Of a stretch of 64,000 bases of DNA, positions 402 through 58,932 are shown one piece after another. Positions within the stretch are counted from its first letter, which is position 1, and each line of letters opens with the position of its first letter. Position numbers and translations under genes: made by a program. This DNA is from Octopus sinensis. Its lineage: Eukaryota. Where the stretch lies: contig NC_043005.1 of assembly GCF_006345805.1 (NCBI RefSeq), forward strand, positions 15,686,001-15,750,000. Direction: 5' to 3'. The notes beneath the pieces were generated by a model. It had not been told where the DNA came from. It saw nothing but the letters and a program-made list of their open reading frames with translations, and did no database searches.

Positions 402-404
<3 letters not shown>

Positions 405-780
405 GACTATATATTGTTCAAAGAAGAATGCAGTGTACGTTCAAACACAAAAGAGGTACCCGAAAAATAGGATACCTGACTCGCTAGAAAGAGCGGTCAA
501 AACTCCAAGCCACCAATTGTTGTAATTCCGAAAGTGATTGGAAAATAAAAACGTTTACCTTAATCCAATCACTTTCGGAATTACAACAATTGGTGGCTTG
601 GAGTTTTGACCGCTCTTTCTAGCGAGTCAGATATCTTATTCTTTGGGTATCTCTTTTCTGTTTGAACGTACACTGTATTCTTCTTTGAATAATATATAGT
701 CTATCGACTAATTTTTTTTCTTTCTCGCTAGACTACTGGTAACTAAGAATTTTTCGATGAATATTCTTGCTACCCTAAGA
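402..780. mobile_element. (TA)n-flanked fold-back element, putative Penelope-like terminal repeat fragment
   Basis: 141-bp inverted arms 402-542 and 564-704, 21-nt loop, tail to 780, (TA)n on both sides. Homologous to 43955-44257 and to the sequence 3' of the hammerhead at 39006-39078. Confidence 0.75.
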
Positions 781-3275: not shown

Positions 3276-3489
3276 TCTTTTCGCTGACAAATCTAAAACA
3301 AACCAACTGGTAGGTATACATTTGGCAATTAACGTTGGGGAAAGGTTACGTAACATATCGTAAATCACGAGAGTTATTTCTGTATATGGAAAGTAATTAT
3401 TTTTGGTGACATAACTCCTAGAAAGATCATGCAGACTAACAACGAGCAGACTAATGAGATTTCGACTTCGATGCGTCTCATCAACCTCA

Positions 3490-3774
3490 ACGTACTTATT
3501 AATAAAGGGTACTAGTAGCGTAGACTGGACCCGGTTTGCGCACACGCGCAGACGCCGCGAATCGGGGACGTGCGATACAAGTATATATCGTATATATACA
3601 AGTATATATCGTATACAAGTATATATCGTATACAAGTATATATCGTATACAAGTATATATCGTATATATCGTGCATGTGCCAGTCAGCTCGTAGGATCGA
3701 CTGCCTACGTCTGGCTAGCGCGTATGCGCAAACCGGGTCCAGTCTACGCTACTAGTACCTTAATAAAGTACGTT
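3490..3774. mobile_element. MITE/foldback element with internal 17-bp tandem repeat
   Basis: about 40-bp near-perfect IR GTACTAGTAGCGTAGACTGGACCCGGTTTGCGCA (from about 3510, and ending about 3759); central ATACAAGTATATATCGT x5; weaker IR continues outward. Confidence 0.8.
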
Positions 3775-13225: not shown

Positions 13226-13271
<46 letters not shown>

Positions 13272-13320
13272 TAGTGAATTGAAGAAATGGAGTTGAACGA
13301 AGATTGAACAGAAATCGTTT

Positions 13321-13411
13321 TATTGCATTCTACACGTGTTTCGAAAGGCACAATTTACCAAATTCCGATTGAATAAGGAGACATATTGTGTCTTCTCTCT
13401 TCAGAAAAATA
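13321..13411 (-). ncRNA. type I hammerhead ribozyme (mirror copy)
   Basis: minus strand ttt CTGAAGA gagaag...ctttc GAAA CACGTG TA gaa; stems slightly diverged. Confidence 0.75.
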
Positions 13412-13673
13412 GGAAATCCGTTGGAAAAAACAAAACAGAACAGAGGCGGAGCAAAACAAATCGAACGAGGCTCCTAAGAGCCCATGGCCAAACTGTTTAT
13501 CAATGTATGTTGAAAACGGGTGGTGGGTGCGTTGAAGATTTTAAAATCTTCAACGCACCCACCACCCGTTTTCAACATACATTGATAAACAGTTTGGCCA
13601 TGGGCTCTTAGGAGCCTCGTTCGATTTGTTTTGCTCCGCCTCTGTTCTGTTTTGTTTTTTCCAACGGATTTCC

Positions 13674-13766
13674 TATTTCTTCCTGAAGAGAAAGACACAA
13701 TATGGTCTCCTTATTCAATCGGAATTTGGTAAATTGTGCCTTTCGAAACACGTGTAGAATGCAATA
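13674..13766 (+). ncRNA. type I minimal hammerhead ribozyme
   Basis: TTC/GAA stem I; CTGAAGA 13683-13689; stem II GAAAG/CTTTC extended by CACAAT/ATTGTG; GAAA 13745-13748; palindromic CACGTG; GUA site ending 13756. Confidence 0.85.
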
Positions 13767-13971
13767 AAACGATTTCTGTTCAATCTCGTTCAACTCCATT
13801 TCTTCAATTCACTAATAATATTAAAATTCAATTATCCGCACCAACGCACGGTTGCAACACACCATATGGTTGTACCTCCAACCGTGCTGTCTTCTGCTGT
13901 GATTTTTGCTACCAAGGTATCGGTTAAACTTTTGATTAATCTGCAACAAGATTATTCATCTTTCTATTTCA

Positions 13972-14036
<65 letters not shown>

Positions 14037-22677: not shown

Positions 22678-22953
22678 CAAAATGGGGCAAGAACGCAAAA
22701 TATCCGGACAACTAGGTGATACAAAAAGGGACAACAAAACATCCAGATAGACGATACAAAAAAAAACAAGGACGGGTAATTCGAAGCTTTCTATCCTCAG
22801 TCAAGAACCAGATCATCTTCGCAATTTCGGCGAGGATAGAAAGCTTCGAATGACCCGTCCTTGTTTTTTTGTATCGTCTATCTTGATGTTTTGTTGTCCC
22901 TTTTTGTATCACATAGTTGTCCGGATGTTTTGCGTTCTTGTCCCATTTTGTAT

Positions 22954-31399: not shown

Positions 31400-31670
31400 T
31401 TGTTTATTATCGTGGGAGACATTCAACTTCCAAGTGTCAATCTTAAAACCCTAGCTGTCCCTAGCAGCGCAGTTTTTTGGGGGCTTGTTCTGCTCTCATG
31501 TAAATTCCGATTTCTCTGACATACATCTCGAACTTGGTTGTTAGTGTTCCGAGTGCCCCTATTGCTAGAATGTGGACTGTGAGGACACTCTCCTCACAGT
31601 CCACATTCTAGCAATTTCGTCTTATAGTAGTCTGTACTTTTCAATGTTTTCTAGTTCTTTGTCACTTGGT
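31400..31670 (-). pseudogene. R4/Dong-type endonuclease C-terminus
   Basis: KELENIEKYRLL*DEIARMWTVR...AIGALGTL...KTALLGTARVLRLTL. Confidence 0.75.
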
Positions 31671-31672
31671 TA

Positions 31673-31831
31673 ATATTTATAGGATTGAGGTAACTCCACC
31701 AGAAGATATAGAAGCAAAAAAACCTGTGGAAGACACACGAGATGTCGAAATATCGTTCACTTGATGACAGTTGCACTCTTCTTTTTTTGCTTCTATATCT
31801 TCTGGAGGAGGTTCCTCAATTCTATAAATAT
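31673..31831. mobile_element. small MITE-like element, about 49-bp IR
   Basis: ATATTTATAGGATTGAGG...GAAGCAAAAAA matched by its reverse complement at about 31783-31831. Confidence 0.7.
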
Positions 31832-38900: not shown

Positions 38901-38962
<62 letters not shown>

Positions 38963-39005
38963 CCCCCTCCCTCCCCCTCTATATATATATGTTAATTGTT
39001 AAGGC

Positions 39006-39078
39006 ACGGTTGCTGATGAAGATTCGCCTAGCAAATTATTTAATTTACTAAAATAATCCGAAACCTAGGTATGACCGT
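39006..39078 (+). ncRNA. type I minimal hammerhead in a (TA)n-flanked element (about 38991-39222)
   Basis: ACGGTTG/TGACCGT stem I; CTGATGA 39013-39019; stem II (A)GATT/AATC(C) with A-C at the first pair; GAAA 39060-39063; palindromic CCTAGG; GUA ending 39071. Confidence 0.78.
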
Positions 39079-39796
39079 AAATAATAACAAGGTAAAAGTT
39101 TTTATTTTTCATTCCCTTCGAAAATTGCTCTTAAAATGTGGTTTTGGTCGTTTTGACTGCTTCTTCTAGCGTTTAAAAATTACCTATTAAAGGTAGTTTT
39201 CTCTTGTGCTAAGTGTACACTATTATATATATATATATATAATATACATATGTGTGCATGCATACAATTTTCAGGTTTTATCTTTTAAATTTCCCTCTAA
39301 TGAAGAAATGAAGAAAAAGACGGTTTCTAGAGAAGAAATGATATTCTTTCAACAGAATTTAAACACGATTAACAGAATAGTTGTGCAAGTAATGTATGTG
39401 CATAAATGTAAGGTTTGTATGTAAGGTACGTATGTACAAGAATACGTAAGCTATGTATATAATGTATGTATGCATGCACAAACGTATTCATACACACACA
39501 TGCAAATACATATATATGCATGTGAGCACATAGATGAATAATGGATCTTATTGCATCTCTGTATATGCTTATATATACGTACGTAATTATGTATCTATAT
39601 ATATGTATATATATGGTTATAGATACTTAAAGATATATTATACAACCAAATGCATTGTTAATAGAAAAATAGACACAAATATTCTCAAGGACGTCTTAGT
39701 CAGAAAACATCCTGTTTCAATAAAAACGACAAACCAAGCAACTCATCTTCAAGTACTGTTTGAAGCTATAAGAACACTGAATGTCTACTTATACAT

Positions 39797-43954: not shown

Positions 43955-44257
43955 ATCAATCTAAGGGTAGCAAAAAATTCAATAGAAATTTTTTCGCCAC
44001 CAGAGTCTAGTGAGAAAGAAAAAATAGCAACAGACTATATAATGTACATTCAACAATAATATTAAGGAATGGCCTTAATAGGCCATTCAACTCACAAAAA
44101 CGAGCAGCTAAACTCAAACCGCTAAATAGTAGTAATTCAGAATCAAAGGAAAATTAAAAACATTTACCCTAATCAACTAATTTTCCTTTGATTTCTGAAT
44201 TACTTCTATTTAGCGGTTTGAGTTTAGCGGCTCGTTTTAGTGAGTTGAATGGCCTAT
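43955..44257. mobile_element. fold-back element, same family as 402-780
   Basis: terminus TCTAAGGGTAGCAA next to (TA)n; arms 44078-44156 and 44178-44257; 21-nt loop. Confidence 0.78.
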
Positions 44258-45780: not shown

Positions 45781-46828
45781 ATGAAGAAAAAAGTTTTGCG
45801 ACAGCTGTCAACTGACATAAAAGCATATTTAAAATATAAAGATATGATAACGGAACAGAATGGAATAGTAAAAGTGGAAATACCAGAAGAAGAATTAACG
45901 GAGGAAAAAAGAAAATCATTAATTTTAAGACATTTTGCTTAAAAGCACGTAAAATTGATAAAATATGTGAACAAAAAATTGAAAAATGTCTAAAACCCAT
46001 CTGGCAGGACATTATATATCTAGCCAGAGGGAAGACGTTTGGAACCATCGTGGTGATGTTCAAGAATGCAGAAACGGCAAAGAGACACTCAATAAAATCT
46101 TTAGAGTCGGAAGTCACTATGTTAATCCCAATTTACATGGGAATGAGAACGTCAAAAGTGAGAATACCTAGAATTCCGCCCGGCGTAAACCCTATATGCT
46201 TGATGGCGGCAGTTCTGGCAAACAGGGAAGATAGTATTAACCACCTGCAGACTACCGTCACAGAAAATACTTATTGGACAGGTCTGACGCTTAACATCAT
46301 ATTGCAGGCTGACCAAAAGATTTTAGAACAGCTCCCAGAAATCGTAGAAGTAGGAGAGGAAGTTCTAAATATTTTTGTTGAGGGGCGTAAGCTCCAATGT
46401 TTCCAGTGTGGCCAACTGGGTCACATTAAAAAATATTGTAAAGAAGGTGTAGAAGAATCAGACGGCGAGGAAGAAGAAAGAGAAAGAGAAACAGAAGAAA
46501 AACTAAACAATAAAAGGAAAATGGAAGGATCGAACCAGCAAAAGCAGAGCGAGCCGAGACAAAAAAAAAAGAAGAAAAAAAACAGCCAAGAGAGACAGAC
46601 CGAGGAAGGCGGAGGGGTAACGAACAGAGAAATAGCTGCACTGTACAGTAAAAACGAAGATTTAATGCGGGAAATAAAAACCAAAAAATCAGCAACGAAC
46701 TCGAGAAAATGTGTGAGGTCTTTCGGGAGTACTTCGCCCAGCTGTTCGTGGGTGACGGCGGACCTCGAGGACTGTCTTGCCGGGCTGCCGTGCCTCTCGG
46801 GGTCGCATGCAAAGAAAGTAAGGATGCA
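45781..46828 (+). pseudogene. Tx1-like ORF1 (gag-like zinc knuckle) with a short ORF2-like fragment
   Basis: VEGRKLQCFQCGQLGHIKKYC (CX2CX4HX4C); one frameshift near 45935; the end of ORF 46050-46883 reads into a SINE. Confidence 0.75.
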
Positions 46829-47181
46829 TGTTAGCATGCCGGGCGAAATGCTTTGCGGTATTTCGTCTGCCATTACGCTCTGAGTTCAAATTCCGCCAAG
46901 GTCGATTAATAAGTACCAGTTACGCACAGGGGTCGATATAATCGACTTAATCCGTGTGTCTGTCCTTGTTTGTCCTGTCTGTGTTCAGCCCCATGTGGGT
47001 AGTAAAGAAATGGGTATTTCGTCTGCCATTACGTTCTGAGTTCAAATTCCGCCGAGGTCGACTTTGCCTTTCATCCTTTCGGAGCCGATAAATTAAGTAC
47101 CAGTTGCGTACTGGGGTCGATGTAATCGACCGTGCCCTTCCCCCAAAATTACGGGTCTTGTGCCTAGTGTAGAAAAGAATA
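46829..47181 (+). mobile_element. SINE family A dimer
   Basis: junction AAAGAAATG|GGTATTTCG. Confidence 0.88.
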
Positions 47182-53230: not shown

Positions 53231-53414
53231 GATTGACGATAGATCGGTAGCCACAACACATTTTCTCTCCTTGTTTCTTTCTGTGTTCTTTCTGTGAAAG
53301 AGCATGGGCTCGAATCGTTGACTTTTTCAATTCCTGAGCATTATACTAATACATCTGTTTGTTTTCTACACCACCTGTCTTCGGTTTTGTTTTTTCGTGA
53401 ATTCTCCCCCTGTT
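53231..53414 (+). mobile_element. (TA)n-flanked element homologous to 15646-15830, with decayed hammerhead
   Basis: cttt CTGTGA a a GAGC atgg GCTC GAAT CGTT; shared TTCCTGAGC..ATACTAATACA..CCACCTG 3' region. Confidence 0.7.
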
Positions 53415-58379: not shown

Positions 58380-58852
58380 GGTGTTTGGTATAATGTTTTG
58401 CAATAGTTCCATGTTGTAAGTGTGTAAGGAGCCTGAGAAGTAGTATATTATACTAGTATGTCCTGTGTTACAATTAGAGTCTTGAAGTTTACAACTTTCA
58501 GCTTTACAGTCCAATTTCTAGTTTTCATTAGTCATTCATAGTTTGTTCTTTTGCTAACATGCTTGTGATTATTAATAAGGAGGTTTCGTTTCTGTTACTA
58601 GTTTAACTTGATGGAATTTGTGTTCTCTGCTACCAGAGCTTTCATTATGTGTTCATCTTCTCGATATTAGAATGATGTAGAATCAATAAGCATCATCCTA
58701 TGGATTTGTTATTATTACACCATGAATAAAGGGGCGAGCTGCCAGAATCGTTAGAACAAGGGTTCTCAACTATTTTTTTTTATCTGTGGACCCCTTTGAT
58801 TACTATTTTATTCAGGTGGACCCCTGTAGTCATTCGATACTCTTTTATTCTT

Positions 58853-58919
58853 TTAAGCAACGTCGAGCCTAGTTAGTACTTAGATGGGTGACCGCTTGGG
58901 AAACCTAGGTGCTGTAAGC
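58853..58919 (+). pseudogene. 5S rRNA 3'-half fragment
   Basis: TTAAGCAACGTCGAGCCTAGTTAGTACTTAGATGGGTGACCGCTTGGGAAACCTAGGTGCTGTAAGC matches the 3' portion of metazoan 5S. Confidence 0.85.
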
Positions 58920-58932
58920 GTCACACATTATA

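Follow-up and report, generated by a model that had tools for sequence, protein, structure and literature searches.

A head-to-head palindrome in Octopus sinensis that is likely built from the pseudo-LTR of a Penelope-like element

The insertions of Penelope-like elements (PLEs) have been described as 5'-truncated, accompanied by an adjacent inverted copy, provided with a tail at either end and targeted to microsatellites (PMC8557442), and solo pseudo-LTRs (pLTRs) as well as junction palindromes have been described for the same group (PMC3846280). In Drosophila Penelope, the start site lies 46 bp upstream of a retained 75-bp intron (PMC2377424), and start site and intron are arranged likewise in a Chlamys element (PMC8557442). 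In vitro, a PLE protein, which is a predicted dimer, cut and extended both strands of the target, working from two internal RNA sites that match the tail (PMC11167929). The origin of the inverted ends of PLEs and the role of PLE hammerheads are both stated to be open in these reports (PMC8557442, PMC11167929).

In the present study, we analysed a window of 64,000 nucleotides of the Octopus sinensis genome, which is 37.7% GC and, with its many microsatellites and dispersed repeats, looks like animal genomic DNA. The palindrome close to its start, P1, is made of two 5'-truncated copies of one multi-copy repeat end, which are joined at their heads within a (TA)n tract (Table 1). Based on its anatomy, this repeat is likely the pLTR of a PLE. 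The head-to-head layout is already known for PLEs, and the P1 family is another case of it. The window also contains two relatives of P1, a second palindrome at 44 kb (P44) and a single non-palindromic copy downstream of a hammerhead-like motif at 39 kb (H39), as well as two palindromes that were used for comparison (P13 and P22).

Table 1. Coordinates of the elements compared in this study (positions in the window)
Feature	Position	Strand	Description
P1 stem	402-542 pairs with 564-704		loop 543-563 (21 nt); from self-search of the window
P1 long arm	403-563	-	element-end copy, tail-less, runs into (TA)n at about 402
P1 loop	543-563	-	21 nt, the long arm's extra 5' part; contains the shared block (561 to 548)
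P1 short arm	564-704	+	5'-truncated by 21 nt beyond the long arm
P1 tail	705-780	+	about 76 nt, on short arm only, terminates in (TA)n
P1 inner identical stretch	476-542 and 564-630		67 bp, both arms, two near-private letters
P1 predicted intron	484-558	-	75 nt; donor AAG/GTAAAC, branch-like TTGAC, pyrimidine tract, TAG acceptor
P13	13263-13977		palindrome 13263-13823, zero loop; hammerhead-like motif in each arm, facing outward; tail about 150 nt, right arm; unrelated family
P22	22674-22954		palindrome in (TA)n; 33-nt loop (22799-22831); unrelated
H39 hammerhead-like motif	39006-39078	+	minimal type I; core 39013-39071; predicted cut after 39071
H39	39072-39222	+	single non-palindromic relative downstream of predicted cut; (TA)n end, tail-less
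H39 native inverted repeat	39079-39107	+	imperfect, 9/10 pairs; 9-nt loop is the block start; begins 7 nt after cut
H39 predicted intron	39092-39169	+	78-nt GT-AG span
P44 palindrome	44078-44257		from self-search of the window
P44 long arm	43959-44177	-	loop 44157-44177 (21 nt); tail about 73 nt (43959-44031), adjoins (TA)n
P44 short arm	44178-44257	+	tail-less, early end in (AAT)n

Several features of PLE insertions are seen at these loci. An inverted 5'-truncated copy stands head to head with its partner in P1, in P44 and in one joint from public contigs (run X2), and the tail is found on one end only. The tails of P1 and P44 are alike beyond chance. The flanks consist of microsatellites; in the window, (TA)n adjoins both ends of P1, the 3' end of H39 and the tail end of P44, and (AAT)n adjoins the short arm of P44. 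These features resemble those described for endonuclease-bearing (EN+) PLEs of the Penelope/Poseidon, Neptune and Hydra clades, in which 5'-truncated copies likewise stand head to head, one end carries a tail and insertion is into (TA)n (PMC8557442, PMC3846280). Such PLEs also have minimal hammerheads, and here a hammerhead-like motif is seen in the relative H39. Similarly, the inverted pLTR of rotifer Pen2a is 37 bp shorter with a 15-bp overlap, and a short junction offset is likewise found here (PMC8557442, PMC3846280). In contrast, the tails described for EN+ PLEs measure 30-40 bp against 73-76 nt here, and here no coding part is attached (PMC8557442, PMC3846280). No Pfam match to a PLE-type RT or GIY-YIG domain was found in the nine scanned of 71 window ORFs of at least 100 aa, the copies themselves being too short to encode one, so that it is the anatomy that connects these copies with a coding element. 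Six short motifs of these elements were compared with the Naiad, Chlamys and Hydra sequences that supplement PMC8557442; they gave no identification, the few matches lying in unrelated contexts. Non-LTR retrozymes likewise derive from PLEs, lack a coding part and contain type I hammerheads, but they are described as head-to-tail arrays with one hammerhead per unit, whereas the copies here are single or head to head (10.64898/2026.07.22.740005); this class was rejected because the self-search of the window gave no direct tandem copies. A MITE or foldback DNA transposon was rejected as well, given the 73-76 nt extension on one arm and the existence of a relative in single orientation, H39.

The relationship among the three elements had been proposed in the original prediction from a block common to all of them. 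This block, AAGGTAAAnGTTTT, is exact in P1 (from 561, minus strand) and in H39 (from 39089, plus strand), whereas P44 has AGGGTAAATGTTTT at 44170 on the minus strand, with one mismatch to the predicted motif. The other measurements of that prediction hold: the two loops each measure 21 nt and extend past the upstream edge of the block, by 2 nt in P1 and by 7 nt in P44, microhomology at the junction leaving 1-3 nt of uncertainty; the block in H39 starts 17 nt after the GUA cut; GTTTTGACnGCT, TTCTAGCG and GTACACT are found in both P1 arms and in H39; and P1 and P44 have a terminus in common, ending in GCTACCCT(A/T)AGAT. A significant alignment among the three elements had likewise been expected. 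Local alignment scores were 31 for P1/H39, 33 for P1/P44, 21 for H39/P44 and 35 for the two tails, none of which was reached in 1000 dinucleotide shuffles, and the best score against P1 among 1560 other tiles of the window was 15. Identity to H39 is 71% over 83 nt for P1 and 62% over 136 nt for P44. Along the P1/H39 alignment, identity amounts to 20/22 on the donor side of the intron predicted below, 17/20 on its acceptor side, 15/36 between them and 22/55 after, a distribution to which alignment bias could contribute. The left arm of P1 and H39 terminate close to a common proximal site, and the right arm of P1 and the left arm of P44 at a common distal one. The tail is carried by the short arm in P1 and by the long arm in P44.

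The two arms of P1 differ by eight substitutions, seven of them transitions, and three are departures of the left arm from the family letter. All eight fall in the outer 74 of the 141 bp, the inner 67 bp being identical (P = 0.005). A-to-I editing was dropped as the source of these mismatches, since the changes sit on both arms. Letters 495 and 498 are common to both P1 arms and absent from at least 99% of the family depth in runs X1-X3. Together, the identity of the inner stretch and its near-private letters point to a later conversion and not to a single template, and we conclude that the inner stem was probably converted arm to arm at the DNA level after insertion. Therefore, the present P1 junction may differ from the original one.

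The blocks shared by these elements are predicted to be the splice signals of a short retained intron. The branch-like motif TTGAC of P1 reads TTAAC in the majority of the P1 family, and the predicted acceptor is altered in the long arm of P44 and present in its short arm. If the blocks are conserved for splicing, their closeness to the turn needs no ribozyme. The pLTR intron of Drosophila virilis Penelope is comparable in that a short GT-AG span lies in the terminal repeat and is kept in genomic copies, as are the 75 nt of P1 and the 78 nt of H39 (PMC2377424, PMC4209133). The Drosophila intron differs in that its end adjoins the hammerhead on the 5' side, whereas the predicted intron here would start 20 nt downstream of the cut (PMC2377424, PMC4209133). 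No spliced contig was found among the loose ends listed, where the aligned stretch extended no more than some 8 nt beyond the donor in the upstream direction. Contig pieces that start at 484, the predicted acceptor, were rejected as a sign of splicing, as DNA runs show the same. Just upstream of the donor, loose ends of the P1 family contain TACAG, 10 nt and the donor GT, which could represent an acceptor and a micro-exon. Additionally, a second acceptor-like stretch (CTAAT or CTAT, a T-rich tract and CTAG) is present in the tails of P1 (705-731) and P44 (43985-44031, minus strand), and the roughly 45 nt beyond it could begin a coding exon.

The hammerhead-like motif upstream of H39 has a stem I of 7 pairs (two of them G-U), CUGAUGA, a stem II with an imperfect closing pair and CGAAAC-CUAG-GUA. 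In stem II, GAUU pairs with AAUC and one extra C is left over, and for this reason a strict hammerhead scan missed the motif. Three instances of a hammerhead pattern whose loop III is palindromic are present in the window, one at 39013 and one in each arm of P13; 100 shuffles gave none. These motifs match the minimal type I hammerheads of metazoan PLEs in CUGANGA, the bulged base before stem II, CGAAAC, the palindromic loop III (CUAG, ACGU) and the UA cut (PMC4209133). Unlike those described there, the H39 motif, a predicted ribozyme, has a long stem II with an imperfect closing pair and has no Rfam match (PMC4209133). No Rfam hammerhead was found at gathering level in the window, nor at E 10 in 38950-39260 and 13250-14000. 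A decayed hammerhead-like motif (a GAGC/GCTC stem, with GAAT for GAAA) was observed at 53290-53325, in another short element with a (TA)n end at about 53412.

Neither P1 nor P44 contains a hammerhead. Furthermore, CGAAAC-N4-GTA at the 39-kb spacing is absent from the 30 nt upstream of the block in P1-family contigs (8 from run X1 and 5 from run X2, among the loose ends listed), whose consensus upstream of 559 agrees between the two runs at 25/30 positions by eye, with an internal agreement of 0.64 and 0.75. The cut positions given for P1 and P44 are projected from H39, and that of P1, with no matching hammerhead in the visible upstream 30 nt, is putative. In the loose-end consensus, a possible half of a hammerhead (GAA-N7-UA, 10 nt before the block) was rejected, as it has no C before GAAA and no palindromic loop, at an agreement of 0.64-0.75. 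The native inverted repeat of H39 is weak, being equalled in 100 of 2000 shuffles with a fold z-score of 0.3. In the P1 family, GGAAAG upstream faces TTTTCC downstream of the block (by eye, in loose ends), and the centre of this repeat lies about 1.5 nt off the observed P1 centre, an inexact fit. At the junctions themselves, GGA pairs with TCC in P1 and GGAAAATT with AATTTTCC in P44.

P13 and P22 show no relation to P1 and H39, since 652-886 of 1000 shuffles score as well. The two hammerhead-like motifs of P13, with predicted cuts after 13756 on the plus and 13331 on the minus strand, match the opposite-strand pairs 100-700 bp apart described for PLE hammerheads (PMC4209133). The turn of P13 had been placed about 140 nt upstream of its hammerhead; we find it at 13542/13543, 140 nt before the core and 214 nt before the predicted cut. 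The arms are 96.8% identical around the centre TTTTAAAA, and several of their differences are small indels. Rfam miRNA matches on P13 were rejected, as all were below gathering level and any long hairpin would give them. The P13 tail (13824-13977) holds GCACGGTTGC, found elsewhere only at 39004, where it is the 5' strand of H39 stem I; in the P13 tail it closes its own 9-bp hairpin. The same tail holds TTTTTGCTACC, found elsewhere only at the tail end of P44, with TTGCTACC as the P1 counterpart. The P13, H39 and P44 sequences may represent a common tail motif, though the families are otherwise unalignable. The turn of P22 at 22800 is spanned, on the minus strand, by CTGAGGA ... CGAAT, which resembles a hammerhead core; should this be the relic of a hammerhead, the turn would lie upstream of its cut.

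Other features of the window were also recorded. A match to 5S rRNA at 58798-58920 (41.8 bits, good in the 3' half only) is probably a 5S-derived repeat or pseudogene. The 347-aa open frame at 45840-46883, with a zinc knuckle just under the Pfam cut-off, presumably resembles an ORF1-type protein of retroelements. Inverted repeats of about 60 nt surround a tandem array of 18-nt units at 3489-3774, similar to a MITE or a satellite-bearing element, and a near-perfect 55-nt hairpin with a 3-nt loop (31561-31615) adjoins a looser inverted repeat (31673-31831).

Copies of the P1 family outside the window were collected from public contigs of 4 of 21 runs, aligned to 399-566 with at least 80% likeness, which gave 247, 246, 128 and 14 records (635 together). 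The family is dispersed and highly repeated, with a summed depth of up to 72,000 against 30-76 for the X1 contigs listed, a ratio that is not a copy number. The start of the tail was seen as loose ends in all four runs. The fall in depth toward 566 was left unused as a signal, being equally steep at the other edge. Opposite-strand joints occurred in two of the 635 records, both in run X2 and in one contig each. The joint 460 to 544 is head-to-head according to its listed piece, with heads 34 and 118 nt downstream of the projected cut (offset 84), and the opposite-strand joint 452 to 512 has heads at 66 and 126 nt (offset 60). For P1 and P44 the corresponding distances are 15/36 nt and 10/31 nt, so that, over the four family junctions, 5 of 8 heads are at most 36 nt away from the projected cut, the other three being found 66-126 nt downstream. 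Arm offsets in the window are 0, 21, 21 and 33. These contig joints show that turns are not confined to one spot; a hot spot stays compatible with them. The joint of P1 itself is absent from the contigs of the four runs, which indicates that hairpins with short loops are under-counted and thus leaves a clustering of turns unrefuted. Scans for element motifs gave no loci in metagenome contigs, none in viral contigs and one in genome contigs; this single match (22 nt, in a bacterial MAG) was rejected as chance, being isolated and with no further similarity.

Several routes to the turn were considered. We tentatively favour, at somewhat less than an even chance, a reading in which both ends of the target break primed RT and the two cDNAs were joined through a short inverted repeat of the element itself. 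An endonuclease would cut both strands of AT-rich DNA, and each end would prime RT either at a proximal site near TATATAGTCT or, some 75 nt beyond it, at a distal one, the latter yielding the tail. Both cDNAs would stop within the 5' part of the repeat, and their 3' ends would pair via a few complementary bases flanking the block, which would set the turn and the loop size with no ribozyme cut needed; the inner 67 bp of P1 would likely have been homogenised later at the DNA level. Such priming, with the joining that follows, needs no additional step to account for the orientation, the variable offsets and the presence of the tail on one arm or the other. The tail on the short arm of P1 and the long arm of P44 would be the direct outcome of two independent primings, and a fixed inverted repeat would lead to recurrent turn points and similar loop sizes. 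Tails on either side of PLE insertions have been reported (PMC8557442), and Anolis carolinensis Poseidon in vitro is alike in its two internal RT start sites that delimit the tail, its AT-rich targets and its extension of both strands; inverted junctions are not addressed in the parts of that report drawn on here, and the two-ended joining is our own proposal (PMC11167929). Counted against it are the lack of a linked RT or GIY-YIG among the ORFs scanned, the weak H39 repeat, the inexact P1-family centre, the zero-loop centre of P13, for which a hairpin is the simpler explanation, and the polarity of P1, for which a later one-sided central deletion could also account. PLE junction palindromes have instead been interpreted in the literature as products of self-priming (PMC3846280), in which one nucleic acid, either first-strand cDNA or, as proposed for rotifer PLEs, antisense RNA, would snap back at a short inverted repeat and be copied into a hairpin; resolution of the ends by the endonuclease, which is a published guess for the tail (PMC8557442), would leave it on one arm. 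We regard this as possible though rather unlikely here. The short loops made of element sequence only, the loopless P13 and the rare letters 495 and 498 in both P1 arms are in its favour, yet those private letters sit in the mismatch-free inner 67 bp, with eight mismatches in the outer 74 bp, which argues for conversion. A fold-back strand cannot contain sequence absent from its template, and therefore simple cDNA fold-back cannot yield the tail of the P1 short arm; likewise, target priming on a sense RNA offers no way for the short arm to acquire a tail, yet that of P1 has one.

The original prediction took hammerhead-cleaved RNA as the template, with RT run-off near the cut setting the turn by fold-back or template switch, and this could be combined with either joining mechanism. 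The starts of the long arms of P1 and P44 at 15 and 10 nt past the projected cut, the 5 of 8 heads within 36 nt, the native inverted repeat that starts close after the cut of H39 and the under-counting of short-loop hairpins all agree with it. Nevertheless we consider it unlikely, as the cut is a projection with no matching hammerhead in the 30 upstream nt of the P1 family, three heads lie 66-126 nt downstream and the turn of P13 precedes its cut by 214 nt. As H39 retains a whole hammerhead, its template was either uncut RNA or RNA with a rejoined end. Minimal hammerheads of this kind cleave poorly (PMC4209133), and, as reported for Anolis, hammerhead mutants inserted normally in vitro and no RNA-seq reads end at the cut (PMC11167929). 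In its fold-back form, the proposal also conflicts with the tail on the shorter arm of P1. What stands of it is the retroelement origin, the head-to-head copies and the two turns at most 5 nt apart in one region; a turn set by the cut and cDNA fold-back are unsupported so far, given these observations and the offsets of 84 and 60, and the link between hammerhead cutting and the position of the turn is weak. Alternatively, the RNA may begin in the pLTR shortly upstream of the intron donor and RT may have run off at its capped 5' end, an explanation that is again combinable with the joining models. The turns 5-10 nt before the donor-like GT of the 75-nt GT-AG span and the start sites of Drosophila Penelope (PMC2377424) and Chlamys (PMC8557442) speak for it, while the region upstream of the donor in H39 is taken up by the hammerhead, and we find this start-site explanation improbable. 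Central deletions stabilise long palindromes, and the polarity of P1 could stem from a later one-sided central deletion. A different or perfect palindrome remodelled in this way after insertion, with arm-to-arm copying, would have loops that are not RT footprints, and could also accompany a joining model. It agrees with the identical inner 67 bp and private letters of P1 against 8 differences in the outer 74 bp. We hold such remodelling for quite doubtful, because mismatches in P44 and P22 are spread along the arms and random deletions are unlikely to yield two 21-nt loops over the same block. An assembly or library artefact (a fold-back chimera), or else a MITE or foldback DNA transposon, is very improbable: the P1 joint is missing from the contigs of the four runs and the element as a whole forms a long inverted repeat, but the arms carry eight substitutions, seven of them transitions and three of them left-arm changes away from the family letter, the ends are asymmetric, H39 occurs singly and P44, at 62% identity, is built in the same way.

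In the literature searched, which was largely that available without subscription, we found no study that plots PLE inversion points against the hammerhead cut. The high-copy, short head-to-head pairs described here form a natural data set for this purpose, in which tail side, arm offset and junction microhomology discriminate between priming at both target ends and self-priming, and head position across the pairs bears on the role of ribozyme cleavage. It is conceivable, though a distinctly long shot, that many such pairs, in the thousands, record an in vivo intermediate of PLE integration, in which RT would run off at the 5' end made by the hammerhead, both target ends would be primed and a native hairpin around the splice donor would fix the 21-nt loop. 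If true, this would provide genomic evidence for cleaved RNA as the template of PLEs, as opposed to the dispensability of the ribozyme in vitro.
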